A DNA stretch of 64,000 nt from a virus (IMGVR_UViG_3300045988_179616:32001-96000), one strand, 5' to 3'. Positions 1,874 to 63,218 are shown, counted from the stretch's first letter. Notes: a model not told the origin generated them from the sequence alone. Translations and numbers: made by a program.

Positions 1874-1902
1874 TTGAAATTTTCCGATATTTATAGTATA
1901 CT
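1874..1902 (+). promoter_or_regulatory. promoter TTGAAA-17-TATACT (conserved class)
   Basis: The sequence is tttgaaattttccgatatttatagtatactatatatagaaagta. It shares an extended conserved block with 3942-3985 and 60385-60436(-). Confidence 0.6.
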
Positions 1903-1936
1903 ATATATAGAAAGTAAGAAAGGAAGATAAAAAAAT

Positions 1937-10860: not shown

Positions 10861-11301
10861 TTATCCCGCTAAAACTTTCAGAACACTTGCCATCGCATCA
10901 GGATGAAAACCACCCATTCCCCAATCAACCAAGTTTCCCGCTTCGTCATCAAATAGAATATCATCAGAAGAAGAACGAAAACTCGTTTTCTTTGTACCAT
11001 ATTTTACAATATGAATTTCATCAAAGGAAACACTTCTCAAATGCTGACGCAACCAGCGCAATTTTTCAGCCTTTACAGCTTCAAGAAATTCGGGGTTTCT
11101 GTCTTTGCTTCCCCATGAAATCACCCCAATCTTTACACCCTTTCGCTGAATTTTGTTCAGCTTGCGCGCCAGCGTATTCATATTACAAAGAGGGCGAGCT
11201 TCTGCATAAATTTTTGCGTCATAAGCTCGCAAGCGAGGCAACCAGTCTTTTGCGCCATATAAGTCGGCAATCGTGCCATCCATATCAAAATAAATAGTCA
11301 T
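10861..11301 (-). CDS. HAD-superfamily phosphatase, 5'(3')-deoxyribonucleotidase-like
   Basis: It has the N-terminal FDMDGTIAD motif, and its size and layout resemble NT5C-type nucleotidases. Confidence 0.6.
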   Translation of the reverse strand: MTIYFDMDGTIADLYGAKDWLPRLRAYDAKIYAEARPLCNMNTLARKLNKIQRKGVKIGVISWGSKDRNPEFLEAVKAEKLRWLRQHLRSVSFDEIHIVKYGTKKTSFRSSSDDILFDDEAGNLVDWGMGGFHPDAMASVLKVLAG

Positions 11302-21022: not shown

Positions 21023-21036
21023 TTGGAGGAAATAAA

Positions 21037-36288: not shown

Positions 36289-36299
36289 GGAGGCTTATT

Positions 36300-42200: not shown

Positions 42201-42536
42201 AAATTTAGAAATACTGAATTTATTAGTTTAAATGAAGAAGATTCTAAGTTAAAAATAGCTTTCAAGACTGTACCTCAAGAAAATAGTTATTTGGAACTTT
42301 CAGATTTTACTCTTCAAAGAATAACCAAAAGCCTAGAAGAAGAGAAAATTATCTCTAGCCTCTTTTTTGGAAAGGATGAAATCCAAGGAACTATCGGAAC
42401 TGAAACACTTCTTTCTATTTCTAATCAGTCAGTTAAAGCGTTAAAAGACTTAGAAGTTTTTAACGATGTTAGATTTTCTAGATTTCTAGAATATAGAAAG
42501 GTAGATAATGGATATGACTTATACATATCTGAGTAA
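36300..42536 (+). CDS. tail-associated (Tal-like) minor structural protein or tail fibre, 2078 aa
   Basis: The N-terminus YEISLWNDKF... is typical of Firmicutes phage minor structural protein N-terminal regions. It follows Dit and contains internal GTFSG.I.ASSG.IGG repeats. Confidence 0.7.
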   Translation: MIKNKYEISLWNDKFIKSTETIPAHYEEEKICILGSDSMTSQARVVEPKLVQNVNGTNILTFKLFYYYIDNETGEKVRNPFLSLLVNERKIKCRWDNKWYDFVIKGIQEDSSGKSITYTCSDLFVNELSKTGFNLEFNTDLNNNQGTAQELAEKVLEGTDWKLDIQKSDHILQTIEEPLYKTITTQVIDTLEGTKIGENSEIYLFYSVVSEKETFIQFIYNEKGYETEANSQLLKENNCFSIEVADYDKWLEKYTTGIGSTLSDYRGKRLVRQQLQEFNDAVGRNCYVFNKSNTDKTKVLGYSTIEYKDPTVILNLISNSKDFVDTNGWLGNLEWQLYPLFYNSENIPIDYEGKTYLLTSGEQDSKNNYLPIFNSGLQNSAIYLENGLQTGQKYIVRIKAYTDDNGKPSNTLIAPTDVSFQILDYFNSLGAGSDGVPEHNSDSYCNFTTPLIKNTYVSTKDTTPSPEKTYYIWENKEYTIQKNLDSFSADLKYYELGDKVIEFEVEILKSIPRADITAGYLKEAEKDNSQHIAKPGLFIYLPKCWLEEIQFYQKVEGYNGQVIHIGDLDTQSVGTTYYKYFIPNNSYKNEDDIKFLYSGTEKQTDYVKLYKDDTKVLYEKIRSINKKQSNRFNLLQSIAETFECWVRFNIDHDSSGKIIYDNGFPKKTVYLKEKIGNELGYGFKYGIDLKTISRSIDSNQITTKVIVSPNINEHAEEGICEIAKSLYSETGENYIYDFGYYISQGLLNSGELNKYFYLPEDGTSGFYIQLKQLNTEYNARVQKIAARKIELSKQTSLQTVYDQYVSSAQEEIISLRSQLAQLAGLKNYNIEKVLAYISNHQDNEKAINLLTTLTTAEHNLENYKNSLFLIERSVSNLTSFIDTEEEKNKKILDKKKNLEENFYKRFSRFIQEGTWTSQDYIDENLYYLDAKSVAYTSSRPKVSYNISVIRLNALPEFAGKIFNVGDISYIEDTEFFGYVIGKNGWKTPYRERILISEKTINFDSPEKDTFTVQNYKTQFEDLFQRITSTTQSLQYSTGEYNRASNAIEGKGVINSETLQNSININNELVFKSQNEAIFQDSTGLTLSDTTDPSKKTKLTSGGLFISVDGGVTWKNAVRGEGVSTQYLTSGSINTENISILDGQFPTFRWDKYGLNAFEAVYENDTLVGIVDNNYIRFDQFGIYGVNQSGSNTPLNPKSLDEVKENAFFGLIRNGFFLKSEEENGIVEISSENNILVKTDEIERIKIGKLSESQYGLRIKDKNNIISLETDDNGKLWLKDSLNIYNTTETYVLSTDTIVDDTKTYYQLDKENNTYIKVITPYGNPSENGYFEKYNYDIKIGNIETSVGQLNQVFNANNNFIVYEDGSIKATTGSFSGDITGSTGTFSGKIFASSGRIGGLEINGDFTREPIAEIREDKLVIKGTGLEVRNNNGDLSLGALSNGDLIFSGELQGATGTFSGDISAASGTFSGGLLASSGKIGGFKISSDYLYKEIYKLSEDTSRDINKKYYALENGEYVEVIFSNENSVEINPKEKGYYEDDINNSPLILFGTEGKIKTTNIELGSGAKIVDKIVLSSGVGKPEAYIYNPEKYSDVFLKAGNLELKTNGLFEIGDIIIDGSAEGPSIRSTKWAITPDTATFKNVIAQGGTIENVVFSNSSTQSAGGIMIFKPSGTCSYDSTQVTEGKNIYYYLLDKNSNLELEQGTQVLLQKYEANVEIVEELGDSFKKVGLCFSKSYNEEDIINPQITYTLTTLYGFKEGELVDSLLIGINSSSVAQFNLKPKGITLISPKLIDGEVVYPDEPGLFIGDLSSIDLSGRYKGYGLIGDNVYLNGTLTTKVKGVSNSTYAGVNTTTGVASKKFGDFEKIVFWAGAENEKDTSIQEAPFQVTDYGNLYASQGKFSNSIFTDSSIYGGDIYTARIHGYENDTSSALSIYNTGNEKGITFFEGDKVLTGEEEKVTLQINKNGLKFRNTEFISLNEEDSKLKIAFKTVPQENSYLELSDFTLQRITKSLEEEKIISSLFFGKDEIQGTIGTETLLSISNQSVKALKDLEVFNDVRFSRFLEYRKVDNGYDLYISE

Positions 42537-42550
42537 AAGGAGGAAAATAA

Positions 42551-45517
42551 ATGAGTTGGTTATCTTTTACCTATAGCAACGGTCGCCCCAATATTATTTT
42601 TAATATAGATTATTCTAAAAAAAGAATCAGTAACGCTACTATGCGCTATACTTTTACAGTAAAGTGGAATTTAAAATATAGTGATTCTTATCTTTATAGT
42701 GGCTATTTTCTCAAAATAAAAGCGACCTGTGAAAATTCTTCCAGCGGTTGGCAAATTATGCGAAATTATAGTGATTCAACGACAGGGACAACCGTACATA
42801 CTTTGACCTTCTCTTTAGATGTTCCAAGTACAGCTGGTGGAACTTCACAGACAATTACTTTTACTGGATTAAATGACAGTTCCTATGATTCAAACTATAT
42901 GAACTTTTCGCGAAGTGGGACTGTTATAACGGATGCTCTTCTTTGGACAAATTGTTCTTCAGCATCTAATATTCTAATTCCTTCTGTTTTTACCCCAAAA
43001 GACGGACTAGAAGTAACTTGGACCAAAGGTAGTGGAGGAACTAATAATCCTATAATTGGTTATGATGTTTATTTATGGGGCTCAGCCTCTGGAACCTATC
43101 CCTCGACTTCACGATATGATTATAAAATTTCTACTACATCTACTAGTGTTACTTTTTCATCTCCTGAATATCAAAGTTTTTTTGATAAATATCGTGGATA
43201 TTTTTTCTATATAGGAATAGTAACAAAAAGTCAATATAATACAACTTCTATGGCTTATAGCAATAGGGCAGTACTAAATGTACTGCCCCCTGCTCCAACT
43301 TCTCCAGTCCGGGAAAAAACAATTAGTTCAAATTCTACCGGGGCCACTTTAACTATAACCCCTGGGACCAAAACCCCAAATCAAGGATATACTACTACAT
43401 CTGTTTATTATAGTACTTCAGCCAATTCTAATTATCAAAAATTTACATCTGACTCGACCCTCTTACCTAGTGGAGCAACTTATTATTTTAAGACTTATGA
43501 TGGAAAAGAATATAGTAAAAATTATATCGAAGTACAAATTTTAAAAAATATCGCTCCAACAGTAGCTCTTTCTTTTAATAGTAGTAATTCAACCAAAACA
43601 ACAGTTTATAAAAATGGAGTTTTACAAGATAACTACTATGAAAGTTTAAATTTTTCTTTTACAACGAATAAATCTTCTGGAACCATTAAATTGTATCAAA
43701 AAGGAGAAAATTCAGATAATTTAGTTACTTCTTATTCAATAGCTTCGACCTCAACCCAAAAAAATTTAAATCTTAGAAATTGCGGTTTTCTTTCTAATGT
43801 CTCTCTAGAATTTTATGCTATTTTTAATGACGGAATAGAAGATTCATCCGAATCTATTCATACTACCAACATAATTATGATATCCGCTCCTCCAAGTTTT
43901 TTGACTACATACAATCAATTTGCTCTTTCAGATATAGTTGGAACAACCAAAGGACATTTTTATGATAAGGTTCGTTTTGTATATGATTATGATAGCTATT
44001 ATTACAATGGGACTTTTACTTCTAATCTTTCTAATAATTTTATTAATATTACAAAAGATAAAAGTGAAAAACAAATGTGGTGGGATGTAACTTTTAGTAC
44101 TGCCTCTTTTTCAAATGGCGAGACTGTTTCATTTTCAAACGTTTTAAGTCAAGAAGAATCAATAACTTCTTTAGGAAATTTAATACGTGCTCAAGAAATT
44201 AAGTTTGTAAATGATACTTTAAAGAGAACTATAAAACCTTTTTCATCTGAAGATAGTTTTTCTCTCTCTCCCTTTTATCTTAGTACAGAAAAAACCTTAG
44301 AGGCTTTTTACGCTGAAAAAGATTTAAACAAAAATGGAGCAGACATAAAATTAGTTTTTAATTCAATAATTTATAATGAGATAAAAGAATCTGTAGAATG
44401 GGAAGAGGGAAATAACGATAGTGTTGCCGTTAAATTTAATTTTTCTGGAAAAGGTTTTTATGAAAAAATTAAAAATCTTATTCCTCCTTCTCGAAGCGGG
44501 AAAATTTCTTGTTCCTTGCAAGTTATTATTACAAATCTTTTTGGACAGAATTTTTCGAATAGCTACCCATTAATTTTAGATTATGATGAACCTATTAATG
44601 TTTCTAATTTTTCAATTTCAAAAGGAATTTATGGTTCTAATTCCTTTAATTTTTCTAATGGAGATAGAATCTGCGAAGGAATTAAATTAAACTTTGAACC
44701 ACTTATATCTATTTACAATGGCAATTCTTTTGACTATATGATTCAGATAAAAAGAGGTTCTGGAAATTTTATTGACTATTTAAATGATTGGCAAACAATT
44801 GAAACTCAGAATTTGGTTGTAGGACACAAGTCTCCAATGTCAATAAAATTATCAATTACTACTCCGACAGTTCAAGAAATCAGCTCAGGAGAAAACTGTG
44901 TTTTTCGTCTTTTAATTAGAGTAACAAATCAAACTTTTATATTTGATTCTCAAAGCTATGAAAGAATTAAATATATACCATCGGAAATTTCTTTTATCAA
45001 AGGAGAGTATTCAAAAGGAACTGGCTATTCTTTAGTTTATAAAATTACAGAAGGATATGAAACATTATCCTCCCCTCTACCAGAGGTAAAAAAAGTATAC
45101 GCTATTGGAGTAGAGAAAGAAAAGACAGAACTGCCTTCTGAAGCTTGGGAAAAAACCAATATAGTATATTCTGGAAGTCCGATGGGAGAACACGAAACTT
45201 TTAAAGAGGTTTCGTTGCAGACAGAAACTACCTTAACTGTAACTTTTGGGACGGTAAAGGTTCAATTAACAAAAAGTGCCACTTCTAATTCTATTTTAAT
45301 TTATTCTTTGGCTCCAACAATTTCTTATAGACAAAATAACTTAGGATTAAATACTTTCCCAAACAAAACAGATTCTGTTTTAGAAATTTCTCCTTATAAA
45401 ACTAGAGATAAAATTTATTTAATTCCTCCTACTGAGAGTATTCCTACAGTAGCCTTTGATTTAACAAAAGGGACTTTTTTAAATTTGATAATTGATTGCG
45501 GAGAAATTACTATTTAA
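42551..45517 (+). CDS. Ser/Thr/Asn-rich baseplate or receptor-binding candidate (988 aa)
   Basis: Large ORF after Tal with beta-rich, low-complexity composition. The call rests on position. Confidence 0.45.
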   Translation: MSWLSFTYSNGRPNIIFNIDYSKKRISNATMRYTFTVKWNLKYSDSYLYSGYFLKIKATCENSSSGWQIMRNYSDSTTGTTVHTLTFSLDVPSTAGGTSQTITFTGLNDSSYDSNYMNFSRSGTVITDALLWTNCSSASNILIPSVFTPKDGLEVTWTKGSGGTNNPIIGYDVYLWGSASGTYPSTSRYDYKISTTSTSVTFSSPEYQSFFDKYRGYFFYIGIVTKSQYNTTSMAYSNRAVLNVLPPAPTSPVREKTISSNSTGATLTITPGTKTPNQGYTTTSVYYSTSANSNYQKFTSDSTLLPSGATYYFKTYDGKEYSKNYIEVQILKNIAPTVALSFNSSNSTKTTVYKNGVLQDNYYESLNFSFTTNKSSGTIKLYQKGENSDNLVTSYSIASTSTQKNLNLRNCGFLSNVSLEFYAIFNDGIEDSSESIHTTNIIMISAPPSFLTTYNQFALSDIVGTTKGHFYDKVRFVYDYDSYYYNGTFTSNLSNNFINITKDKSEKQMWWDVTFSTASFSNGETVSFSNVLSQEESITSLGNLIRAQEIKFVNDTLKRTIKPFSSEDSFSLSPFYLSTEKTLEAFYAEKDLNKNGADIKLVFNSIIYNEIKESVEWEEGNNDSVAVKFNFSGKGFYEKIKNLIPPSRSGKISCSLQVIITNLFGQNFSNSYPLILDYDEPINVSNFSISKGIYGSNSFNFSNGDRICEGIKLNFEPLISIYNGNSFDYMIQIKRGSGNFIDYLNDWQTIETQNLVVGHKSPMSIKLSITTPTVQEISSGENCVFRLLIRVTNQTFIFDSQSYERIKYIPSEISFIKGEYSKGTGYSLVYKITEGYETLSSPLPEVKKVYAIGVEKEKTELPSEAWEKTNIVYSGSPMGEHETFKEVSLQTETTLTVTFGTVKVQLTKSATSNSILIYSLAPTISYRQNNLGLNTFPNKTDSVLEISPYKTRDKIYLIPPTESIPTVAFDLTKGTFLNLIIDCGEITI

Positions 45518-45569
45518 ATTTGACTTTTTCTTTAGAATGAATTATAATAAAAGAAAAGGAGGGGAAAAA

Positions 45570-45953
45570 ATGAAAATTAGTTTATATAATTTAATAAACG
45601 TGCTGGCTATAGAAGATAAGCTTTCTGCACAAAAACTTCCAATAAAAGTTACTTATCGTCTTTCAAAGATTTTCTCATGCGCTCATGAGGAAGCAAATTT
45701 TTATCAAGAAAAACTTTTAGAAATTTTAAAAAACTATGGTGAGAAAGATTCTAATGGAGAAATCATTACCTCTGAAAATGGAACTGTTTCAATTCAAAAA
45801 GATAAGATAGATGAGTGTTCTAAGGAGTTAAGCGAGCTTCAAAATTTAGAATTAGAAATTCCAGATTATTTTATTTCTTTAGATAGCTTAGAAACTATAA
45901 AAATTTCTCTCGATGAAATTTCAGTATTACTACCATTTATTTGCGAAAAGTAA
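45570..45953 (+). CDS. hypothetical protein (127 aa; track start 45492)
   Basis: The ATG at 45570 is preceded by GGAGGGG, and a strong terminator lies downstream. Confidence 0.45.
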   Translation: MKISLYNLINVLAIEDKLSAQKLPIKVTYRLSKIFSCAHEEANFYQEKLLEILKNYGEKDSNGEIITSENGTVSIQKDKIDECSKELSELQNLELEIPDYFISLDSLETIKISLDEISVLLPFICEK

Positions 45954-45964
45954 ATAAAGACCCA

Positions 45965-46017
45965 AGCCCGTTTTCGATTTGTTATTAGAACTTATCGAAA
46001 GCGGGCTCTTTTTATTT
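45965..46017 (+). terminator. terminator
   Basis: 14-bp stem agcccgttttcgat...atcgaaagcgggct (one G-T pair) followed by ctttttatttt. Confidence 0.75.
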
Positions 46018-48173: not shown

Positions 48174-48902
48174 TTATTCCCAATTTACGACTTCAACTTT
48201 TTTATAACAAGTTTCACTTATATATTTTCCGATTCCAACAGCGTCAGCTTCATCTTCAGTAAGACTTACATCAAACCAATCCTTTGCCAGTTGGCGCATT
48301 GAACGCTTTTTATCAGACCTTGAGCGCCCCTTTACCCCACAATGCGCGCGCCAGGTATTTGTTGGAGCAATTTTGAAGGGAACTCCTAAATCAAAACAGG
48401 TTTCCATCAGAATTCCTTGAAGTCGCGCCAGAGTCTCAAAAGTAGTCACGCCCATCTTTTCTTGATACTGAATACCCTCAATTCCGACAAAATCTATACC
48501 AAAAGTTTTTATAATTGAAACTAACCATTCTTTTATGATGTGGTCTCTAGCAATTTCTTCTAAATCAACGGGGGCACTAAAAATGCCATATTTGATAAGC
48601 TTTTTATCATCATAGATTGAAAAGCCAGAAACTTTTGTTGCTTGGTCTAATCCCAATACCCGAAAAGTGTCTTTCTTTTTAGGAATAGTTTTCAAAGTTG
48701 AAGAGACTAGTGGATTTTCTTTACACAAAGGGCAATCGCGCCGAGTACGAATTTTTTTCCAAGGAGCGAAAACATGGTGTCCTTCATTACAGGTATATTC
48801 GAGAATTTCGTCTAAATTATGATACTCAGTAGAAATTAAATTCCACCCATCTTTAGACAATTCTGCTTTTATATCTTCTATTTGAATTTTTGCCAATTTC
48901 AC
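48174..48902 (-). CDS. RuvC-like Holliday junction resolvase with an N-terminal Cys-containing domain
   Basis: Contains VLGLDQATKVSGFSIYD (first catalytic Asp), FVGIEGIQYQ (Glu) and LTEDEADAVGIGKY (C-terminal acidic residues). Confidence 0.7.
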   Translation of the reverse strand: MKLAKIQIEDIKAELSKDGWNLISTEYHNLDEILEYTCNEGHHVFAPWKKIRTRRDCPLCKENPLVSSTLKTIPKKKDTFRVLGLDQATKVSGFSIYDDKKLIKYGIFSAPVDLEEIARDHIIKEWLVSIIKTFGIDFVGIEGIQYQEKMGVTTFETLARLQGILMETCFDLGVPFKIAPTNTWRAHCGVKGRSRSDKKRSMRQLAKDWFDVSLTEDEADAVGIGKYISETCYKKVEVVNWE

Positions 48903-48912: not shown

Positions 48913-49815
48913 TTATTTTAGCCCAGTAGAACCGAAGCCTCCATCAGCCCTTTCTGTATCTTTCATAACTTTATCTACCAGATAGAAATTAGCTTTGGGA
49001 ACTTCAGCGAGGACTAACTGGGCAAATTTCTCACCCTTATGAATGTAATGGTCCGTGCCATGTAGGATAGAAGTAATAATAGGATGGCCATTATTATCGA
49101 ATTCATAAGTAATATCTTGAATAGGTGCTTCCACATTTTCAACAATAACACAGACTTCTCCACGGAACCCAGCATCAATAGTTGCGGGGGTATTCGCGAC
49201 TCTTAACTTTGTCTTTAGACAACGACCACTCTTAGGACGAATCTGTAACTCATAACCATTAGGAATAGCAAACTTTAAGCCAGTAGGAATTAATTTTGTC
49301 TCTCCGGGATGGATAGTATAATCTTGTAGTGCATACAAGTCCATTCCACTATCATCTATATGCGCATATTCAGGCATCCGGGCCCCTTTTCGGCATTTCT
49401 CATAAGGAATTTGGATGTATTTCTTAGCAACTCCTTGAGTTTCACTGATACAGTTGGCTAGCCCATTAGCTAGTTGCTTCAGGAAATCTTTCTTTTGAGC
49501 AGAGAAGCCTTTTAGTGTATCAATCTTTTGACCTAATTGGACAAAATTTTGAACCATATCTTCGACAGTGGCGCCATTAGCATTTATCGCTTGGGCAAGG
49601 AACAAACGAGTATTTGCATTATTCAAACTCCGTAAGTAGCTATCCAAAACTCCAGGAGCTAACAAAGTGAATTTATCTTCGGGGAGGTCTAGTAATCCCC
49701 CAATTGCTTCAAGTGTATCTTCTTTGCCAGAAAGCTCTCCCATTAGAGAAGATAGTTGATGGACATCTTCTTTAGTAATTTCCTCTTGAGTAGAAAAATC
49801 AAATATCTCAGCCAT
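48913..49815 (-). CDS. dut: dUTPase with a roughly 150-aa N-terminal extension
   Basis: The C-terminal half carries trimeric dUTPase motifs: DSGMDLY, IRPKSG, IDAGFRGEV and GGFGSTG. Confidence 0.85.
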   Translation of the reverse strand: MAEIFDFSTQEEITKEDVHQLSSLMGELSGKEDTLEAIGGLLDLPEDKFTLLAPGVLDSYLRSLNNANTRLFLAQAINANGATVEDMVQNFVQLGQKIDTLKGFSAQKKDFLKQLANGLANCISETQGVAKKYIQIPYEKCRKGARMPEYAHIDDSGMDLYALQDYTIHPGETKLIPTGLKFAIPNGYELQIRPKSGRCLKTKLRVANTPATIDAGFRGEVCVIVENVEAPIQDITYEFDNNGHPIITSILHGTDHYIHKGEKFAQLVLAEVPKANFYLVDKVMKDTERADGGFGSTGLK

Positions 49816-50032
49816 CTAATTCCTCCCATAGCTCTCCAAAAATTTCAGTTATCTTGACTAACCATAGCTCACCGATAATCTCACCTTTGGCCTTTTTCGT
49901 TTTATAGGTGTATCCTGCTGAACCAATAGTAAATCCTTTTTCACAAGCATCTTTTCGATAATTTTCAATTACTTGCTTGGCTTCTTCTTCAGTAAAACAG
50001 ATAATTTCTGTTTTTTCTTTATAAGTTCTCAT
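49808..50032 (-). CDS. hypothetical protein (74 aa)
   Basis: ORF overlapping the dut start. Confidence 0.5.
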   Translation of the reverse strand: MRTYKEKTEIICFTEEEAKQVIENYRKDACEKGFTIGSAGYTYKTKKAKGEIIGELWLVKITEIFGELWEELDG

Positions 50033-50041
50033 ATATTCTCC

Positions 50042-50281
50042 TTAGTCTTTTACATCAATATTTAGAGAATCAAGATTATTTTTATCAATTGATGTTGATG
50101 AATTGCTTGTAGTAATTGTAGAATAACAGTTAGGTGTAGTTGTAATATTAGAACCATAATAAATAGTATAGCTATCTATTTTACCTTCATTATAAACCTC
50201 ATTCAGTAGTTTTTGAAGCTCTTCTTTCGTAAATTCTATCTTACCCTTTTCGTTATGAGGAAATACTCTAATTTTTGTCAT
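50042..50281 (-). CDS. hypothetical protein (79 aa)
   Basis: ORF in the operon. Confidence 0.5.
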   Translation of the reverse strand: MTKIRVFPHNEKGKIEFTKEELQKLLNEVYNEGKIDSYTIYYGSNITTTPNCYSTITTSNSSTSIDKNNLDSLNIDVKD

Positions 50282-50282
50282 A

Positions 50283-50882
50283 TCAATTCTCCTTTTGTGT
50301 CAATTCCATAAATCTTGGTAGTGTCTCAATCCAATCACAAATCATCTGCCAATCAGGTAGGCGATGATGACGTCGTTGTTGATAAATTGTTTTTAGTTGT
50401 TGATAGTTTGTTGTCATTCCGGCTGTTAGCTCAAAACCCATTGGAATATTATAAAGAATTTCAAGATACTTTTCATTCATAAGTTTATGAGTTTCTTCTG
50501 TTTTTTTCTCTAAAGAAGATAATCTATTATATTCATCAATTTTTTCCTGACAAATATCAATAATTCTTCTATCAACATAAACATTACATTGTTTAGTTAG
50601 AGAAAATTTTAAAACCTTATGCATTTTGCTTTGGCTTGAAATGGGCTCCATCCAATGATACCGTTCCGCTTGCATCCAAGCATTTTGACTAATTGTTAAA
50701 TCAAATTGGACAATAATTCCTTTTAGAGCATTATCATGTCCTTGACCAGTCGGGCAAGTAAGACAATTCCTAATACCAGGAGTAAGCTCACTATTCAAAT
50801 TTTCAATATTGACAGCCTTTGGATATTTAGCAGTTTTAATTGCTCGTTCAAGGCCATACACTTCAGTATTTTCAATCTTCAA
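50283..50882 (-). CDS. divergent ThyX-like (flavin-dependent thymidylate synthase fold) protein
   Basis: 199 aa. GQGHDNALKGIIVQFDLTISQNAWMQAERYHWMEPISSQSKMH aligns by eye with the ThyX gH.S.lEh..f.f.i.gvSR....ql.RHR..s.qqSqRY block. The C-terminal IPMGFELTAGMTTNYQQLKTIYQQR matches LP..t.t.i.....N.R.l.hf..lR. The canonical RHR, SQRY and R..LP residues are substituted. Confidence 0.45.
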   Translation of the reverse strand: MKIENTEVYGLERAIKTAKYPKAVNIENLNSELTPGIRNCLTCPTGQGHDNALKGIIVQFDLTISQNAWMQAERYHWMEPISSQSKMHKVLKFSLTKQCNVYVDRRIIDICQEKIDEYNRLSSLEKKTEETHKLMNEKYLEILYNIPMGFELTAGMTTNYQQLKTIYQQRRHHRLPDWQMICDWIETLPRFMELTQKEN

Positions 50883-51295
50883 ATATATCTCTCCTTTACA
50901 AAATCTCCATCTTCATCTATATAATAAACATTCTTGATTCCCAAATTTTTTATAAGCTTACTACAAGCAGGACAAGGTTTGCTACAAGCCCTTTCTCCTG
51001 TTTTACGTTCTCTAAAAGTAAAAATGGAAACTTTATCCCATTCTATCTCTTTTCCAATTAAAGGAGATAGAGCAGAAATTTCCGCGTGTTCACAAGAATT
51101 GGAATTTTTATAATCTTCAAAATTACGATACTTATTATAGTAAAATTGAAGAGGACGAGTTTTTGTAGAGTTGCAAGAAGCAGATAAAATTCTTTTTCCA
51201 CTAACAACTACTGCGCCGACTCTTGCTCTATCAAAATTAGAAAGCCGACACATTTGTTTAGCGATATTGAAGAAACTTTTTTCTCTGTGGGTCAT
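50879..51295 (-). CDS. dCMP deaminase
   Basis: Contains the zinc motifs CEHAEISAL and PCPACSKLI, and has the right size for a deoxycytidylate deaminase. Confidence 0.85.
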   Translation of the reverse strand: MTHREKSFFNIAKQMCRLSNFDRARVGAVVVSGKRILSASCNSTKTRPLQFYYNKYRNFEDYKNSNSCEHAEISALSPLIGKEIEWDKVSIFTFRERKTGERACSKPCPACSKLIKNLGIKNVYYIDEDGDFVKERYI

Positions 51296-51329
51296 TCTAT
51301 CAACGCATCCTTTTCTTTTTACTATAATA

Positions 51330-51358
51330 AGTATATCATAAAATTATTCTTTTTTCAA
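51330..51358 (-). promoter_or_regulatory. internal promoter TTGAAA-17-TATACT upstream of dCMP deaminase
   Basis: The minus strand reads ttgaaaaaagaataattttatgatatact, overlapping the 3' end of glyA. Confidence 0.4.
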
Positions 51359-52624
51359 ATTTTTCCTTTTATCCAACTCTTTTATAATTTGGTCTATTCG
51401 GCGCGCGCACTCTCTAAATTCAACCGATGTCCACCCTTTTGTAGTCATAGCTGGTGTTCCAATTCGTAAACCAGAAGTCTCCATCGGACTTCGATTTTCA
51501 TTAGGGATACAATTCTTATTTAGAGTAATATTATGCTTATCAAGTTCTTCTTGAACTTCGCGCCCTGTAAGATTAGGATAGTTATAAGTGAGATCAATTA
51601 GGAATAGGTGATTATCTGTTCCTCCACTTACAATTTTATATCCAAGGCTCTGAAATTCGTTGCACATTGCTTTGGAATTCAAAACTACTTGCTTAGCATA
51701 ATCTCTAAATTCAGGAGTTAGGGCCTCTTCAGCGCAGACTGCTTTTCCTGCAATGACGTGCATCAAAGGCCCTCCCTGATTACCCGGGAAGACCGCGCCG
51801 TCTACCTTCTTCGCTAGTTCTGGCTTACAAAAGATTAGTCCGCCACGTGGCCCGCGCAGAGTCTTATGAACAGTAGTAGTAATAATATCAGCCAAACCAA
51901 AAGGAGAAGGATGACATCCACTGGCTATCAATCCTGCAATATGTGCCATGTCAACCATAAAATATGGTCGATAATTATCATTTCTTTCAATCATCCCTTC
52001 AAGTTGAATCACATCAATTATTTCTTTCATTCTCTTGAAATCAATAATGCGACTATAGGCACTTGCGCCAGCTAAGACTAGTTGTGGATGGTAAAAACGA
52101 ATTTTTTGTTCAAAATCCTTATAATCAATAAATCCATTTTTATCTACTCCATACTCAATATGATTGAAAATTTTACCACTAATATTGACAGGAGAGCAAT
52201 GTGATAAGTGGCCTCCATTCGCCAAGGACATGGAAAGAATTGTATCTCCTGGTTTTAGAACTGCCATATATGCCGAAATATTAGCTTGAGTTCCACTATG
52301 AGGCTGGACATTTACATGATAGTCAGTATTGAAAACTTCTCTCCACTTATTACAGCAATATTCTTCTATTTGGTCTACTACTTGACATCCACCATAATAG
52401 CGTCCTTGACGTCCAGAATATCGTGAACATTCAGGATATCCCTCAGCGTATTTAGCTGTAAGACAAGAAGCCATAGTAGCTCGAACTGCATCACTAGGAT
52501 AGTTTTCACTAGCGATGAGCTCGATATTTTTTTGTTGGCGTTCTGCTTCAATTCTAATTAGATTAGCTACCGTTGGAGAATGGTCATTTACAAAATTATA
52601 AACTATTGGATCTAAAGAACTCAA
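51344..52624 (-). CDS. glyA: serine hydroxymethyltransferase
   Basis: 426 aa. Contains ELIASENY, AEGYP..RYYGGC and the PLP-lysine block TTTVHKTLRGPRGG. Confidence 0.9.
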   Translation of the reverse strand: MSSLDPIVYNFVNDHSPTVANLIRIEAERQQKNIELIASENYPSDAVRATMASCLTAKYAEGYPECSRYSGRQGRYYGGCQVVDQIEEYCCNKWREVFNTDYHVNVQPHSGTQANISAYMAVLKPGDTILSMSLANGGHLSHCSPVNISGKIFNHIEYGVDKNGFIDYKDFEQKIRFYHPQLVLAGASAYSRIIDFKRMKEIIDVIQLEGMIERNDNYRPYFMVDMAHIAGLIASGCHPSPFGLADIITTTVHKTLRGPRGGLIFCKPELAKKVDGAVFPGNQGGPLMHVIAGKAVCAEEALTPEFRDYAKQVVLNSKAMCNEFQSLGYKIVSGGTDNHLFLIDLTYNYPNLTGREVQEELDKHNITLNKNCIPNENRSPMETSGLRIGTPAMTTKGWTSVEFRECARRIDQIIKELDKRKNLKKE

Positions 52625-52809
52625 CTTTCTTCCTCCTTTGCTTCTAAATAGCCTCTCATATGTTCATCTTTTAGGGCTTGTTGAATGTTCTTCCAAGCAT
52701 CGGGAAAAAGAGAACCAATCAAAAAACTAAAACTAATTTCTTCGCTATCAAAATTTTCAATAACTTTTGAAATTTTTTGAAAACGCTCTTTTGAAACTGT
52801 CATTTCCAT
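52621..52809 (-). CDS. hypothetical protein (62 aa)
   Basis: ORF overlapping the glyA start. Confidence 0.45.
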   Translation of the reverse strand: MEMTVSKERFQKISKVIENFDSEEISFSFLIGSLFPDAWKNIQQALKDEHMRGYLEAKEEES

Positions 52810-52821
52810 AACTAATTCTCC

Positions 52822-55080
52822 TTATCCACATCTACTCCAACCACAAGATTTACATATGACGCATCCGCCCTCTTGTATAAGCTCAGAACCGCACCCTGGA
52901 CATTTTGCGCCATTATCGGTCTCTGGATTGGATGAGGGTATGCTCTCAGAGCCTAGTGTTTGAGAATTGGAATTTGCCAAGGCAATAATTGAATTTCCTT
53001 TTTCAATTCTTTCTTTCATCTCCTTCCACATTTCCATAAGAGCATTGCCTACTGCCATAGGACAACAGGCGCCTTTTGAGGTATCATGCTTTGTGGCAGT
53101 CCGGGAGGCATAACTTGGACAGACGCCAGTGCTTTGAAGCTGGTCAGCAATATCTTCAATTTTTACACCGCCACGACAAGCTAGAGAAATCATTCGAGAA
53201 AGACCAACCATAAAGTTAGCACATCCGCCAGCACTTCCTTTATTTAGATAAATCTCCATCAAGTCACCAGTATGCGGGTCAAACCAGGCAGTACAATGGA
53301 GAGAACCACAACCAGTAGTTAAACGTCGTTTCATTCCAATTAGATTATCAGAACAGCTAATGATTTCTCCACGAGATAGACCTTTTTCCTCTTCTTTTTC
53401 TTGAGAGTTGTTAGTTGTTAGAATCCCAAGTCGCTTACAGCCATTTCTAAAAACAGTAATACCCTTTAGTCTTTCTGTCCAGGCATTTAGATAAATCTCT
53501 TCAACATCCTTAATAGTTGCTTCTTCTGGAAGATTTACGGTGCTACTAATAGAAGCGTCAATGTGTTTTTGCCATACTCCTTGCATTAGCACTCTATTTA
53601 GAGGAGAAATTGTCGATGAAGTACAAAACCAATTAGGAAGTTCAGTTTCATCTTTTATTCCATGTTCATCCATATATTCTTTTACAATTGGAGTATATAC
53701 CTTATAATATTCATCATGACCATGAAGAGATTCAGTTTTTCGAGTATAGGAATTAGCAAAAATTGGTTCAATCCCTCCACTAATTCCTAACATTGTAGAA
53801 ATAGTACCAGTCGGCGCGATTGTCAGCAATTGACTATTACGAAGACCATAAGCCTCTATCGCTTCTCTTGTACTTTCGCAAGTATTATTTTTTAGGAACT
53901 CACTTTTTTGGACACAAGATTTATAATTGTTATAAGAGCCAGCGTGTCCGGCAAGAAAAGCTGAAGTATATAAAGCCTGGTCGGCCATTACTAAGCCAAT
54001 TTCTTCACATAACTGTCGGGCCTGTTCTGAATCATAAGGAAGCTCCATTTTTATAAGCATATCAGCCAGCCCCATAATTCCAAGACCTATTTGACGCCAA
54101 TCTGCTACTGATTGCCTTTGTTCTTCTAAGGGATGCAAAGAAAGTCCTTCTTCCAGTACTTCGTTTAGATAGATGACACCATTAGCTACCGTTTCACTAA
54201 AATCATCAAAATCAAACTCTTTATCTTTTACAAAAGCAGAGAGATTTATACTTGACAAGAGACAAGACCCTCCCGCAGGAAGAGGCTCCTCCGCGCAGGG
54301 GTTGACTCCTGCATATTCAAAAGTATCGTCAAACTCAAGTAGATTATATTCTTTAATATTATCCCAGAATAGAATTCCAGGTTCTCCCCAATCCCAATTA
54401 TTTTTACATAGTTTTTCAAAAATATCCCTAGCCTTAGCACTTTTTGTAATGGTCTCTCCAGTTTCTGGACGAGTAAAAGACATGACCCAATTCTCGTCAT
54501 TGATTACGGCTTCCATAAAATCATCAGTTACTCGAACAGAAATGTTTGCTTTAGTAACAGCATCCGGAGAAGTCTTTGCATCAATAAAGTCCAAAAGGTC
54601 AGGATGATGACAGTCCAAACTAATCATCAATGCTCCGCGCCGGCCAGCTTGACCAATCTCTTCAGTCGTTTGACTATATCCTTGCATAAAACTTACTGCG
54701 CCGGTAGTTTGTTCTGCTTGATTATGAACCTTTGCGCCTGCGGGAGCTAATTTAGAAAGGTCAATTCCACAACCACCACCATAAGAATAGGTTCTAGCTA
54801 GTTTCTTACGACTTTCAAAAATAGATTCAATATTATCTTCTGGAGGAGTAATAACATAACAATTACTATAAGTTACTCGTGTATCAGTGATTCCCCGATT
54901 GCTAAGAATTCGTCCGCCGGGAATGAATTTTTTTTCAATAATTAGTTCTTTTATTGCTTCGTTATTTCCACTAACTCTATCTAGCCATTCGTCAAAAGTT
55001 TCGTTATTCTTTTTATACTTTCGATTCCATATATCTATACCCAAGCTATTATCTTTTCCTAGCCATTGTTCTACTGTCAT
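52822..55080 (-). CDS. nrdJ: class II (adenosylcobalamin-dependent) ribonucleotide reductase
   Basis: 752 aa in a single chain. It has the NPCAEEPLPAGGSCLLSSINLS active-site loop, TIAPTGTIS, and a C-terminal CPGCG...CVICKSCGWSRCG zinc ribbon. Confidence 0.85.
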   Translation of the reverse strand: MTVEQWLGKDNSLGIDIWNRKYKKNNETFDEWLDRVSGNNEAIKELIIEKKFIPGGRILSNRGITDTRVTYSNCYVITPPEDNIESIFESRKKLARTYSYGGGCGIDLSKLAPAGAKVHNQAEQTTGAVSFMQGYSQTTEEIGQAGRRGALMISLDCHHPDLLDFIDAKTSPDAVTKANISVRVTDDFMEAVINDENWVMSFTRPETGETITKSAKARDIFEKLCKNNWDWGEPGILFWDNIKEYNLLEFDDTFEYAGVNPCAEEPLPAGGSCLLSSINLSAFVKDKEFDFDDFSETVANGVIYLNEVLEEGLSLHPLEEQRQSVADWRQIGLGIMGLADMLIKMELPYDSEQARQLCEEIGLVMADQALYTSAFLAGHAGSYNNYKSCVQKSEFLKNNTCESTREAIEAYGLRNSQLLTIAPTGTISTMLGISGGIEPIFANSYTRKTESLHGHDEYYKVYTPIVKEYMDEHGIKDETELPNWFCTSSTISPLNRVLMQGVWQKHIDASISSTVNLPEEATIKDVEEIYLNAWTERLKGITVFRNGCKRLGILTTNNSQEKEEEKGLSRGEIISCSDNLIGMKRRLTTGCGSLHCTAWFDPHTGDLMEIYLNKGSAGGCANFMVGLSRMISLACRGGVKIEDIADQLQSTGVCPSYASRTATKHDTSKGACCPMAVGNALMEMWKEMKERIEKGNSIIALANSNSQTLGSESIPSSNPETDNGAKCPGCGSELIQEGGCVICKSCGWSRCG

Positions 55081-55271
55081 TAGCTCTCCTCCATGTCACA
55101 AAATTCACAATATCCTCCAACAAAATGATGTTGGCATTGAGATTGATAGTTTTTATTCTCTCGCAAAAGGCGCGCGACCTCATTATTTAGAGTGAACTGA
55201 TTAGGCGTGAGAAGCGTATTGATAAGTTGATTATTCAAATCAATAGCTTTTCGAATTTCAATTTGAGTCAT
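55080..55271 (-). CDS. small Cys-containing protein (63 aa)
   Basis: ORF overlapping the nrdJ start, with C..H......C..C at the C-terminus. Confidence 0.45.
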   Translation of the reverse strand: MTQIEIRKAIDLNNQLINTLLTPNQFTLNNEVARLLRENKNYQSQCQHHFVGGYCEFCDMEES

Positions 55272-56409
55272 TTATAATTTTCCTCCCATCAAAAATTACT
55301 TTTCTCCATTCATAAAACATTCTAAAGGCTTCATAGTTATTGAATCTAACATATTGAAAAGCATCTCTGGCTTCTTGTGTAGAAGGCCACCTTCGTTGAT
55401 ATTTTGCTCGCCAGCATTTCCAAGGGTCTTGATGTTTAGCTATCCATTTGCAATAATCAACAATTCTATCTGCTTTATAATTATAGTATTTTGACCTTAT
55501 AAACCAATTCAAGACCTCAAAAAGATTTTGTAATTCAGGAGTTGTGATTAGTGTGTCATCATATACAAGTGAAATTTTTATCCAATGTCTATGGAAAAAT
55601 AGAACTTGAGGAATAATTAAGGGTAAACGATTCATTAAAAAGTCATTCTCATCCTTGCATCCCTCGTCAACTTTATAAGACATTTGACTTGTTCCTAAAT
55701 CCCATAAATATCTCATTTTGTCACATAAGACGTCATCCATAAAATTATTATATTGTATTCCAAAAACATCTTCCATAATAGGTAGCCGTAACCATTTTAG
55801 TAGTTCTTCCTCTGAAGATACTTGTATAGGAAATTTAGTTCCAAGCGAATATGGTTTTACAGTATTGCTGTTCAAATTATTTCGAGAATACAACCACTCT
55901 TTTATGAAATCATAAGCACCATCAATGGCACCTACATCGTAATCATGAAGAATGAGGCATCTTGTATTTTGAAACATATAGTCCTCTTTTTTTAGCCAAG
56001 GGTCTATATTTTTCCCATCAATTGAAAGACGAATATGCGCGCTCCATAAAATTCTCTTGAATAGACGGGCGTCATCTTTTATACGACAAAAATTAGGAGA
56101 ATGACGCTCATAGATTGAAAAATCAGGAATGGTTTGTTCAATTTCAAGAGGAAGAGGTTTATATGGACCTGGTTGTATTGCACGTCCTCCAAGAATTATC
56201 TTATCATCAAATAATTCTCGTGGATAAATTCCATCATCATAATCTTTTCTTACATAAAGAGTAGAGAAGCGTTCTGGCGCCAACTCTGGTGCCAGAACAG
56301 AAATTTCTCTTTTTTTCTTATGATAAGCACAAAGCTTCGCGCACTCAAGATTGGGGAGGACATTTTGGTAAGTAAAGAAATCGTAATCATGTACCCCAAT
56401 TATTCCCAT
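55258..56409 (-). CDS. hypothetical protein of unknown function (383 aa) within the replisome operon
   Basis: Long ORF that is translationally overlapped with the dnaE stop. I recognised no motif. Confidence 0.6.
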   Translation of the reverse strand: MGIIGVHDYDFFTYQNVLPNLECAKLCAYHKKKREISVLAPELAPERFSTLYVRKDYDDGIYPRELFDDKIILGGRAIQPGPYKPLPLEIEQTIPDFSIYERHSPNFCRIKDDARLFKRILWSAHIRLSIDGKNIDPWLKKEDYMFQNTRCLILHDYDVGAIDGAYDFIKEWLYSRNNLNSNTVKPYSLGTKFPIQVSSEEELLKWLRLPIMEDVFGIQYNNFMDDVLCDKMRYLWDLGTSQMSYKVDEGCKDENDFLMNRLPLIIPQVLFFHRHWIKISLVYDDTLITTPELQNLFEVLNWFIRSKYYNYKADRIVDYCKWIAKHQDPWKCWRAKYQRRWPSTQEARDAFQYVRFNNYEAFRMFYEWRKVIFDGRKIINDSN

Positions 56410-60439: not shown

Positions 60440-62158
60440 TTAAAAAGCAAACCTTCCATCTTGAACTTCCATATCTACAATAAAAAGTTGAGGGGTTTTG
60501 TGCCCCATCCATTCGTTAATATTAGGTCTACCAACTAAGGTAATTTCCATTTCATTTGAAAAACTTTTTAGTTCTTCTATCAAATCTTTTGCTCTGAACT
60601 TGATATAGGTAATTCCATTTTTCTCAATTCGTAATGTATCTTTATTTTTCCCTATAACTTTTATCTCATTAGGCGAAATTATTAAATTAGTAATAGCTAT
60701 CATAGCTTCAGGATTTTGCTGTCCAAATACTTGCTCATACGGCGCGACATCAAGAATTATGGCTTCTATGTCTTTATCATTAGCTCTTCGAACAAAATTT
60801 ACATCATAAATATTTTCTCCAAAATCAATTTGGGAGAGTTCTTTATTTGCTATTTCATGGAGTTTTGAAAGATTCTTGTCAAAAACACTAACTCCGAATG
60901 CTTGGTCGTGGCCAAGAGTATATTCAAAAAGACCCGTCCCCGATAGAAAATCTTTGAAAGAAGTTAGCTCCGTATTACTTGGCGCGCGAGCGCTACCTCT
61001 GTCATAGCCTTCGGAATTTCGTCTAGCCAATATAGTGGGTTTATGATATTTCGCTGATAATACCATAGCAACTAATCCATTCAACTCAGCAGGGAAATCG
61101 TCATCATCATCAAGTCTTACAAATAAAACCTGATTTTCTAACAAATCTTGCTTGAAGATTTTTACTTCTAATTCCTGGACTATCTTTTCTTTCATCTTAT
61201 CTTGGTGAGCTTTTGCATTCGTACATTCACGCGCGCTCTCTATGCAAAGTCTTTCCATTGTTCCTTTAGCTCCGCGCTTATGACACTCTACCATTTCATT
61301 TGGTTCAATAAAACTACGATAAAGTCGATATTTTTCTTCCATTGACCCTACTCGAATCATAGCATTTATAAGAGGAACAATATAAAAAGCAACAGTTGTT
61401 GGGTTTATCTTTCCACCCATTGAATAGTCCTGTTTATCTAATAGAACTCGTAGCATTGTATTCTTGATATTTTGAAAACCAGTTTGAACCAAATATTGAT
61501 TTTCATATTCAAGCATACTCATCATATCTCCAACTAATGAGATTGCACAAAGGTCAATATAGTCATAAGCCCAGTCTCTCAAAAAATAGTCATCTAGGGC
61601 TCGGCAAAATTGCCAAACAACGCCTCCACCACAAAGGTTTTTATTTCTATAATTTTTAGAAGTTTGGTTATTTATAAGTATCATATTGGGTGGAATTTCG
61701 CTTTCTGCTTCTTTTAGGTGGTGGTCTAAAACGAGAACAGGACAGGTAAACTCCTTTATATATTGTCCGTCATTTGTGGCGCTATCTGGCGCGATAATAA
61801 GGCTCCATTCTTTTTCCTCTAGCTGGTCCATCATATCAGAAAAACCATGCTGTTTTCCCTCATGAATAAAAAATTCAATTTCTTTATCTGGATTCCATCT
61901 TTTTAGATATTGATAAATTATAGCAAAAGAACAAATTCCATCGCAATCGCAATCTGCAATAATGGCGTAAGGCTTTTTATCAGAAATCGTCTTTTCAATA
62001 GCCTTTATTCCCATCTGATAATTATCCAAATCTTCAAAACTTTGTAAGCATTCTTTCGTTGGATGAAGAAAGGTTTGAATGTCCTGAATACCTCGCGCGC
62101 GAAGTAAGTTCTTTCCATAGTCTTCTTTTATCTCTTGATTTACTAGTCGATATTTCAC
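60440..62158 (-). CDS. DHH-family RecJ-like exonuclease
   Basis: Contains DHH motifs IIADCDCDGI and VLVLDHH, and a DHHA1-like TLGHDQAFGV. Confidence 0.7.
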   Translation of the reverse strand: MKYRLVNQEIKEDYGKNLLRARGIQDIQTFLHPTKECLQSFEDLDNYQMGIKAIEKTISDKKPYAIIADCDCDGICSFAIIYQYLKRWNPDKEIEFFIHEGKQHGFSDMMDQLEEKEWSLIIAPDSATNDGQYIKEFTCPVLVLDHHLKEAESEIPPNMILINNQTSKNYRNKNLCGGGVVWQFCRALDDYFLRDWAYDYIDLCAISLVGDMMSMLEYENQYLVQTGFQNIKNTMLRVLLDKQDYSMGGKINPTTVAFYIVPLINAMIRVGSMEEKYRLYRSFIEPNEMVECHKRGAKGTMERLCIESARECTNAKAHQDKMKEKIVQELEVKIFKQDLLENQVLFVRLDDDDDFPAELNGLVAMVLSAKYHKPTILARRNSEGYDRGSARAPSNTELTSFKDFLSGTGLFEYTLGHDQAFGVSVFDKNLSKLHEIANKELSQIDFGENIYDVNFVRRANDKDIEAIILDVAPYEQVFGQQNPEAMIAITNLIISPNEIKVIGKNKDTLRIEKNGITYIKFRAKDLIEELKSFSNEMEITLVGRPNINEWMGHKTPQLFIVDMEVQDGRFAF

Positions 62159-63204: not shown

Positions 63205-63218
63205 AGAAATCTCCCTTC

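Follow-up and report, generated by a model that had tools for sequence, protein, structure and literature searches.

A very divergent ThyX-like protein encoded next to serine hydroxymethyltransferase in a phage deoxynucleotide operon, and its family in phages of anaerobic bacteria

A 64,000-nt stretch of viral DNA (IMGVR_UViG_3300045988_179616:32001-96000; hereinafter the window), which makes up ~57% of a gut-type phage genome of ~110-114 kb, carries on its minus strand (48913-55080) an operon of deoxynucleotide and one-carbon metabolism genes, and the subject of this work is a 199-amino acid (aa) protein of this operon, which is predicted to have the fold of the thymidylate synthase ThyX. The predicted structure, together with the sequence and its genomic context, makes it fairly probable that this protein is a highly divergent ThyX-family thymidylate synthase, acting in a clade-specific module coupled with serine hydroxymethyltransferase (SHMT). 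It belongs to the family PHROG 6721, whose members, in the most economical reading, would serve as the thymidylate synthase within the deoxynucleotide modules that phages of anaerobes carry. We propose this role because the family combines the ThyX fold, a retained uracil-activating arginine and coupling with dUMP-producing enzymes with a near-absence of any other thymidylate synthase.

Fold of the 199-aa protein and its homology to ThyX

The likeness of the 199-aa protein to ThyX was originally proposed on the basis of several peptide blocks, all of which are present in the translation, and a structure prediction of 50283..50882 was recommended along with that proposal. The AlphaFold2 model (a monomer without ligands, built with 54 homologs) reached a pLDDT of 92.3 and a pTM of 0.83. 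Its comparison with the Protein Data Bank (PDB) by Foldseek gave 155 matches at E <= 1e-3, the best of which were all ThyX chains, i.e., those of Helicobacter pylori (3ah5/3n3y, TM 0.64-0.66; 0.65 for 3ah5) and of Thermotoga maritima (1o26 and its mutants), with alignments spanning ~210 columns at 11-16% identity. In the Foldseek viral structure library, the top two matches were uncharacterized proteins and the remainder were annotated as ThyX. The model therefore has the same fold as ThyX (PF02511; TM0449, 1O26; 3AH5) over its full length, with TM up to 0.66. ThyX itself is a homotetramer that contains FAD and whose subunits form the active sites jointly.

Profile-profile comparison by hhalign pointed in the same direction. 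A 54-sequence alignment of the family matched canonical ThyX with E = 1.4e-4, and a 138-sequence alignment with a probability of 88.6% and E = 2.7e-6 over 166-176 columns, i.e., the full length; the canonical profile comprised T. maritima ThyX (a sequence 100% identical to PDB 1kq4) and viral ThyX proteins. With single-family models the signal is weaker, as Pfam Thy1 scores 17.1 bits (E = 0.005), below its cut-off of 24.8, and no ThyX match was found in the NCBIfam scan of the protein. Judged from the model and the profile alignments, the 199-aa protein is a genuine, very divergent ThyX homolog.

Active-site motifs and conservation

Residue numbers given here count from the TTG start (M1), while those of alignments A1 and A2 and of the structure model run one lower, and conservation was computed over 138 diverse family representatives. 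The protein carries the stretch R74-Y-H-W-M-E-P-I-S-S83-Q-S85-K-M87-H88, and the three substitutions indicated in the original prediction were recovered: R74-Y75-H76 stands in place of RHR, S83-Q-S85-K-M87-H88 occupies the SQRY region, and the arginine of the R..LP motif (R147 of T. maritima) is lost, being L143 in this protein and Lys in 57% of the family. The ThyX signature RHRxxSxxxxSxRY is thereby absent. Family-wide, the motif S-x-S-x-M-H is found where canonical ThyX has E-x-S-x-R-Y, and the RHR position reads (R/T)-Y-(H/K/R).

The conserved core of the family consists of H49 (77%, with Glu in 23%), W69 (96%), Y75 (99%), S83 (99%), S85 (100%), M87 (89%), H88 (94%, with Tyr in 4%), P147 (99%), N159 (86%), R170 (100%), H173 (99%) and W178 (99%). 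In the alignment of the hidden Markov models (HMMs), H49 is equivalent to H53 of T. maritima ThyX, Q71 (Q/E in the family) to Q75, R74-Y75-H76 to R78-H79-R80, L143 to R147, P147 to P151, N159 to N163, R170 to R174 and D177 to E182. The positions of R174, N163, H53 and Q75 are thus kept, and among them is the uracil-activating arginine, located in the C-terminal helix, whereas the family invariants Y75, H173 and W178 have no conserved counterpart in canonical ThyX. An equivalence of H173 with H178 of T. maritima was dropped, because the aligned positions differ by one residue and canonical ThyX proteins do not conserve H178. In our alignment of canonical ThyX, E86, S88, R90, Y91, R147, R174, Q180 and E182 are invariant, and RHR is not invariant even there, some viral ThyX proteins reading KHV.

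Both the family and ThyX have a Ser-containing loop after helix 3. The spacing of S83-x-S85-x-M87-H88 equals that of the canonical E86-x-S88-x-R90-Y91, and the motif follows the equivalent beta-strand in the AlphaFold2 model. The strand-matched register pairs S83, S85, M87 and H88 with E86, S88, R90 and Y91, whereas hhalign sets EPISSQS as an insertion; in either register Arg90 and Tyr91 are lost and a Ser is retained. In the strand-matched register the changes are Tyr91 to His, Arg90 to Met and Glu86 to Ser. In ThyX, the uracil is held by the R174 equivalent, the tyrosine forms a lid above uracil C5 and flavin N5, and RHR contacts the phosphates and ribityl of FAD, its first Arg contacting also the isoalloxazine ring and dUMP (PMC6514825). 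Ser88 and Tyr91 were described as "strictly conserved" and critical and were proposed as acids for the loss of the carbinolamine hydroxyl, with Arg90 hydrogen-bonding Tyr91 (PMC11940539). As far as can be read from the alignments, the family retains the uracil-activating Arg and a Ser, and its lid and flavin-phosphate contacts are rewritten. With the catalytic loop rewritten in this way, the chemistry would have to depart in its details from that of canonical ThyX, including what acts as the acid catalyst, how the flavin is contacted and what serves as reductant.

An Arg or Lys at position 74 (equivalent to R78) or 154 is found in 457 of 458 family sequences, which suggests that one Arg is required there: position 74 alone accounts for 203 and position 154 alone for 242, both are occupied in 12 and neither in one. 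This split tracks two clades, and it corresponds to about one evolutionary event with intermediates. The clade of the window (>= 42% identity, i.e., at least 42%) carries the arginine at the canonical position 74. It lacks several residues common to canonical ThyX and the other family members, namely A64-P65 and K143 (at the R147 position), and it may therefore be regarded as the more derived branch.

Two further sequences concern the same region. P0322 (521 aa) contains a LAGLIDADG-bearing intein exactly before the equivalent of the invariant S85 (KQSG|C...N|STMH), and in a canonical viral ThyX (L024) the remnant of an intein lies within the same motif, five residues further upstream; phage inteins are known to cluster at active centers of nucleotide-metabolism proteins (PMC5050341). 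P0263 (456 aa) is a tandem ThyX-like duplication, possibly a pseudo-dimer, in which copy 1 is without S-x-S-x-M-H and copy 2 keeps it.

The operon and its enzymes

All open reading frames (ORFs) of the operon were found with the coordinates and in the order originally described (Table 1), and every enzyme except the 199-aa protein passed curated Pfam/NCBIfam cut-offs. The gene list was therefore correct, but the operon is longer than first described, as it includes genes for PolIII-alpha, a 383-aa protein and a 63-aa protein upstream of nrdJ and a gene for a RuvC-like resolvase downstream of the dUTPase gene.

Table 1. Features of the 64,000-nt window
Feature	Position	Strand	Remarks
cREC_REC/HNH gene	100-852	+	receiver-like cREC_REC domain (cyclic-phosphate processing), in fusion with a domain resembling HNH homing endonucleases
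Calcineurin-like metallophosphoesterases (two)	991-1830 and 3364-3918		located after the cREC_REC/HNH gene
Segment of ~69 nt	1866-1932		84-89% identical to segments of relatives
NT5C-type HAD 5'(3')-deoxyribonucleotidase, 146 aa	10861..11301	-	Pfam NT5C 28 bits (cut-off 24.8), phrog_2643 3.7e-11; DMDGT at residues 6-10; separate early operon
Proposed PD-(D/E)XK nuclease	12862-13329		no Pfam or PHROG match; D-x10-QIK pattern by eye only
439-aa protein	13760-15079	+	heads the structural block; sigma-factor-like C-terminal region (phrog_5767 2.5e-10), Lar-like zinc-ribbon signal
Giant ORF, 2569 aa	27580-35289
Low-GC block	36000-46000		29-31% GC (34-42% elsewhere); coincides with the next two ORFs
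Giant ORF, 2078 aa	36300-42536
Giant ORF, 988 aa	42551-45517
RuvC-like Holliday junction resolvase	48174..48902	-	N-terminal zinc ribbon; phrog_159 7.7e-23
dUTPase fusion, 300 aa	48913..49815	-	TIGR00576 118 bits (cut-off 102.6); phrog_135 4.8e-51
74-aa ORF, no assigned function	49808..50032	-	overlaps dUTPase start by 8 nt; kept in 16 related loci; no family match (Pfam, PHROG)
79-aa ORF, no assigned function	50042..50281	-	kept in 14 related loci; no significant family match (Pfam, PHROG)
ThyX-fold protein, 199 aa	50283..50882	-	PHROG 6721; TTG start
Translational-coupling junction	50880..50897	-	AAGGAG Shine-Dalgarno, 8-nt spacer, TTG start on the deaminase TGA stop (TTGA)
dCMP deaminase, 138 aa	50879..51295	-	Pfam dCMP_cyt_deam_1 45.3 bits (cut-off 25); phrog_174
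SHMT, 426 aa	51344..52624	-	Pfam SHMT 3e-138
62-aa ORF, no assigned function	52621..52809	-	overlaps SHMT start by 4 nt; kept in 16 related loci; no family match (Pfam, PHROG)
NrdJ, class II (B12-dependent) ribonucleotide reductase	52822..55080	-	TIGR02504 495 bits (cut-off 400)
383-aa protein	55258-56409	-	between PolIII-alpha and NrdJ; conserved in every close relative; unmatched in Pfam, NCBIfam and PHROG; two HDYD motifs
PolIII-alpha, 1322 aa	56409-60377	-	Pfam PHP, DNA_pol3_alpha, finger, HHH_6
SPbeta-like replication module	60440-63986	-	continues in L107-L109

NrdJ is additionally matched by Pfam Ribonuc_red_lgC (7.6e-102) and, in its C-terminal part, by TSCPD (3e-12), and it also has a zinc ribbon. 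SHMT scores far above its cut-offs (Pfam, 461 bits vs 27; NF000586, 513 bits vs 335), and its translation shows the pyridoxal phosphate-lysine motif TTVHKTLRGPRGG. Its presence, which had been considered unusual for a phage, is indeed rare, being found in 49 of 50,697 phage records. In the dCMP deaminase, the zinc ligands HAE and PCxxC were read in the translation ("CEHAEISAL" and "KPCPACSKL"); this enzyme, with its dCMP specificity being predicted, is a dCMP deaminase and a putative supplier of dUMP. Since the start codon of the ThyX-like gene lies within the TTGA overlap and is preceded by a strong Shine-Dalgarno sequence, the two genes appear to be translationally coupled. A second supplier of dUMP is the trimeric-type dUTPase domain that forms the C-terminal ~170 aa of the fusion protein, for whose N-terminal ~130 aa no PHROG match was found. 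Megablast of the operon against phage records gave no match, and Rfam and tRNA scans of the window gave nothing, with no riboswitch found upstream of nrdJ or the SHMT gene.

In close relatives of the phage, the SHMT gene is split by a NUMOD4/HNH gene, the PolIII-alpha gene by GIY-YIG and nrdJ by LAGLIDADG (L008:7456-9540; L107:12828-17902 and 19231-21050; L109:12828-17901), and all three are intact in the window. These free-standing homing-endonuclease ORFs suggest that polymorphic group I introns/inteins are present in the lineage.

The HAD-family 5'-deoxynucleotidase postulated at 10861..11301 was recognized by both Pfam and PHROG profiles. It had been linked, together with the nuclease proposed at 12862-13329, with a scheme of host-DNA degradation and nucleotide recycling, of which only the deoxynucleotidase half gained profile support; a connection of that gene or of host-DNA degradation with the pyrimidine module is speculation. 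NT5C genes are common in phages and occur near the family in 7 of 160 loci.

Gene neighborhood and the absence of canonical thymidylate synthases

For the comparison of gene contexts, 79 loci of the subfamily to which the window belongs and 80 loci of the other subfamily were collected from viral contigs with 10 kb flanks each; counts out of 80 for the former subfamily and totals out of 160 include the window. Within 10 kb of the family gene, canonical ThyX was found in none of the 80 loci of the window's subfamily and in one of 80 loci of the other (L272), and neither ThyA nor dihydrofolate reductase (DHFR) was found in either subfamily (159 loci). A dUMP-producing enzyme, i.e., trimeric dUTPase, MazG-like nucleoside triphosphate pyrophosphatase or dCMP deaminase, was present within the same distance in 51/80 and 31/80 loci, respectively (82/160 overall), and NrdD/NrdG in 28/80 and 27/80 (55/160 overall).

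When neighbors were clustered de novo over 36 dereplicated groups from the subfamily of the window and their representatives were checked by Pfam, the recurrent ones were NrdD (16 groups), dUTPase (15), NrdG (9), a guanylate-kinase-like dNMP kinase (7), DUF3310 (6), DNA C5-methyltransferase (6), a nucleoside-deoxyribosyltransferase-like protein (5) and NT5C (3). Close relatives retain the same operon as the window. The linkage with SHMT and dCMP deaminase is almost confined to these ~15 relatives, and among the 16 loci that have a deaminase, its gene adjoins the family gene in 12. The postulated convergence of the dUMP suppliers and the methylenetetrahydrofolate supplier on the ThyX-like gene thus holds true within this phage clade.

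In the window itself there is no canonical ThyA, ThyX or DHFR, and no ThyA-like sequence (tblastn E > 0.9; no motif matches). The window and its syntenic relatives (~35 kb flanks) jointly cover ~99 kb of the ~112 kb genome, and no canonical thymidylate synthase was found there. Genes located beyond the window encode DnaB, SPbeta-like YorF/YorH proteins, gyrase A/B, RNase H, DNA ligase, UvrD, ClpP, PhoH and an AAA_33 kinase. Leftward, the window was extended only by L110, by 6.6 kb; a leftward walk via a WDGH-domain protein landed in unrelated phages and was abandoned. Three whole records with the family gene, i.e., XP41-N3 (38.6 kb), Clostridioides phage ES-S-0173-01 (113 kb) and MT835485 (70.6 kb), are likewise devoid of canonical ThyX, ThyA and DHFR, and so is the first 24 kb of ProddE, which is the whole non-structural part of that genome.

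The family PHROG 6721 and its hosts

The 199-aa protein matches PHROG 6721 with E = 3.6e-47 (residues 1-196 to profile positions 8-216 of 218). Its homologs number 4,341 in a 90%-clustered protein collection, and in all 120 listed best matches a Pfam annotation is absent. This number and the strong residue conservation led us to reject the possibility of a pseudogene or a chance ORF. When 1.84 billion representatives of 50% clusters were searched with the profile, 3,831 members were found (3,107 at E <= 1e-10), so the protein is no one-off: PHROG 6721 is a clearly bounded family and much smaller than that of ThyX. Of the listed members of the other subfamily, about one in five has a precomputed match to Pfam Thy1, one member of that subfamily was named "thymidylate synthase ThyX" by JGI, and P0284 passes the Thy1 cut-off (26.2 bits). 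By its sequences, then, the family lies across the border of what is annotated as ThyX, with the clade of the window beyond that border.

Among GenBank phages, the family occurs in 25 records and is always "hypothetical" where annotated. The 21 records with named hosts concern Clostridium, Clostridioides/Peptoclostridium, Fusobacterium, Enterocloster and Desulfovibrio phages, i.e., all the named hosts are strict anaerobes, and the remaining four records come from fecal metagenomes. The carriers include ProddE, a temperate T7-like Desulfovibrio phage with an integrase and a repressor, plasmid-prophage phages of C. difficile (described in PMC5786514), and XP41-N3, a Clostridium phage with antirepressors. 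For the large "plasmidial" C. difficile phages, the listed nucleotide genes are those of ribonucleotide reductase, guanylate kinase and dUTPase, and no thymidylate synthase is among them (PMC5786514). In the literature we found no description of the PHROG 6721 family; the PHROG is an entry of "unknown function" to which neither a function nor a structure is annotated, and what is new here is the link with ThyX, the motif and the context.

Proposed pathway and alternative functions

If the ThyX-like protein is a thymidylate synthase, deoxynucleotides would be provided by NrdJ, dUMP would be pooled via dCMP deaminase and dUTPase, the methylene group of serine would be loaded onto tetrahydrofolate (THF) by SHMT, and the methylene carbon would be transferred to C5 of dUMP by the ThyX-like enzyme, most probably with the formation of dTMP. 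A ThyX-like, non-oxidizing reaction would hand THF back to SHMT, and because THF would return without having been oxidized, no DHFR would be needed. dUMP is the presumed substrate in view of the invariant counterpart of Arg174 and the coupling with the deaminase, and folate is the presumed carbon source in view of the adjacent SHMT; the use of a flavin and dTMP as the product are likewise predicted.

Several observations weigh against this role. ThyX was found neither by phmmer nor by a family-profile hmmsearch of PDB sequences, where kinship is visible only via fold comparison and HMM-HMM alignment, and a small canonical ThyX HMM fails to detect the 199-aa ORF. The register of the motif loop relative to ThyX is ambiguous by sequence methods; Tyr91 and its partner Arg90, which are critical in ThyX (PMC11940539), are replaced family-wide, and the FAD-phosphate-binding RHR motif (PMC6514825) and the Arg147 position are lost as well. 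Moreover, locus L272 carries a family member and a canonical ThyX at the same time; the two genes (L272:10001-10501 and 20089-20493) lie 10 kb apart on opposite strands, with ThyX at the locus edge. Finally, P0357, in which a ThyX-like domain is fused to dCMP deaminase, is a singleton cluster from one 4.7 kb contig without other fused homologs and is possibly an artefact, so that we downgraded this fusion from strong functional evidence to weak support.

The replaced lid residues also underlie an alternative, already raised in outline in the original prediction, according to which the ThyX fold was neofunctionalized and leaves the C5 methylene on dUMP unreduced, giving 5-hydroxymethyl-dUMP or another adduct and, in consequence, a non-canonical pyrimidine in virion DNA. 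The two possibilities then put forward, a divergent dTMP synthase and this one, do not fare equally: the former is favored and the latter is, in our estimation, unlikely. It finds support in the fact that Tyr91, whose side chain shields C5/N5, is changed to His and Arg90 to Met throughout the family (PMC6514825; PMC11940539), and in the exocyclic methylene intermediate of ThyX, which can be trapped by nucleophiles (PMC8989533); trapping of the methylene is chemically reasonable and attractive through the Tyr-to-His change in the lid. Furthermore, the absence of DHFR suits a hydroxymethylase too, and guanylate-kinase-like dNMP kinases recur as neighbors. Besides dCMP deaminase, NT5C and SHMT, the phage has a dUTPase that carries an additional domain, and this set resembles the gene sets of phages with hydroxymethyluracil.

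On the other hand, of the genes screened (the non-structural ones of the window, plus several flanking segments) none was found to encode a kinase, a glycosyltransferase, an aGPT-Pplase or any other hypermodification enzyme, and NT5C lies near the family in few loci. In XP41-N3, in the T7-like phage that has an integrase and in phages maintained for years as plasmid prophages (PMC5786514) the family gene sits alone, and no accessory enzymes for base replacement, such as dTTP-exclusion enzymes or dedicated kinases, are encoded in the whole genome of XP41-N3 or in the non-structural 24 kb of ProddE. A replaced base would be awkward for phages persisting as plasmids. The known 5-hmdUMP synthases are all ThyA-fold enzymes (PMC8989533), restriction resistance is unmentioned in the FNU1 paper, and our literature searches turned up nothing on modified DNA or resistance to restriction in FNU1 or phiCD211-like phages. 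Because the carriers include temperate, plasmid and small phages, and because hypermodification genes are missing among those screened, a non-canonical pyrimidine is the less likely of the two readings; the same temperate, plasmid-prophage and small carriers rather favor a self-sufficient benefit such as dTMP supply. It is quite unlikely, too, that PHROG 6721 comprises the first ThyX-fold makers of a non-thymine C5-substituted deoxyuridylate, e.g., a redox-neutral, flavin-mediated dUMP hydroxymethylase with His88 in place of the Tyr lid.

The loss of phosphate/FAD-binding arginines (R74, R80, R90 and R147) could also speak for a role other than that of a synthase, i.e., for a nucleotide-binding regulator, a protein that poisons or retunes the host ThyX via mixed tetramers, or an enzyme acting on another substrate (a ribonucleotide or a nucleic-acid base). 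Consistent with such a role are the neighborhoods of some phages, composed of recombination and replication genes such as Erf, Gam and SSB or of DNA C5-methyltransferases and not of nucleotide enzymes, the degenerate half of the P0263 tandem duplicate, which recalls pseudo-dimeric regulators, and the co-occurrence with canonical ThyX in L272. We nevertheless consider a non-synthase role distinctly improbable, as it seems hard to reconcile with the conservation pattern: polar residues of the active site are strongly conserved (R170 and S85, 100%; H88, Y75 and H173, >= 94%, i.e., at least 94%), and the either-or pattern of Arg at positions 74 and 154 points to a functional site for catalysis or ligand binding. 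The main neighbors, moreover, are NrdD/NrdG, dUTPase and dNMP kinase, the gene is translationally coupled to that of dCMP deaminase in this phage, and canonical thymidylate synthases are almost wholly absent nearby. A divergent thymidylate synthase thus remains the favored function.

Comparison with known systems

Set beside ThyX, the family occupies the same niche, next to ribonucleotide reductase, dUTPase and dCMP deaminase and with no requirement for DHFR, but its known hosts are all strict anaerobes, unlike those of ThyX, and the protein of the window falls below the Pfam cut-off. The SPO1-type dUMP hydroxymethylase and T4 gp42 are likewise phage enzymes that act with methylene-THF on a pyrimidine dNMP and are encoded along with dCMP deaminase and dUTPase, and they release THF and not dihydrofolate, so that no DHFR is needed, as is proposed here; however, they have the unrelated ThyA fold with a Cys nucleophile (PCH motif) and use no flavin, and nothing ThyA-like is present in the window. 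Phages with modified bases also carry dedicated kinases, exclusion enzymes or DNA-level modification genes, which are not among the genes screened here. PolB of polyoxin biosynthesis is a paralog of ThyX in which the fold has changed its substrate and kept the folate/flavin C5 chemistry; ThyX paralogs of this type keep the canonical ThyX motif and belong to bacterial secondary metabolism.

Other features of the phage and its relatives

Some features of the window listed in Table 1 have counterparts in related genomes. The ~69-nt segment occurs in relatives at a different genomic position (L234:19328-19396, with equivalents in L238, L240, L242, L243 and L246) and may be a repeated regulatory element. 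The SPbeta-like replication module comprises DnaB helicase, primase, RecJ-like DHH exonuclease, PolIII-alpha and YorF/YorH domains, and both gyrase subunits, A and B, are encoded by the phage itself. In XP41-N3, a gene annotated as "phosphoadenosine phosphosulfate reductase" (L249:23656-24624) is located among structural genes; this protein family is sometimes tied to DNA modification.

Implications

ThyX is an antibacterial drug target, the mechanism of which is still debated, and PHROG 6721 is a natural test of the residues that ThyX chemistry needs, possibly in an anaerobe-adapted form, or else a new pyrimidine-modifying enzyme. In the former case, ThyX chemistry would withstand much more alteration than has been assumed. 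Phages bearing the family have so far been annotated without a thymidylate synthase, and a testable function can now be proposed for a "hypothetical protein" of cultured phages that infect C. difficile, C. perfringens, Fusobacterium and Desulfovibrio. If C5 adducts were formed after all, unrecognized modified pyrimidines would be present in the DNA of a widespread group of phages of gut and sediment anaerobes, among them cultured phages of Clostridium, C. difficile, Fusobacterium and Desulfovibrio. If the favored role of a thymidylate synthase is true, the pair of SHMT and the ThyX-like protein would constitute a self-contained, DHFR-independent one-carbon cycle in a virus.

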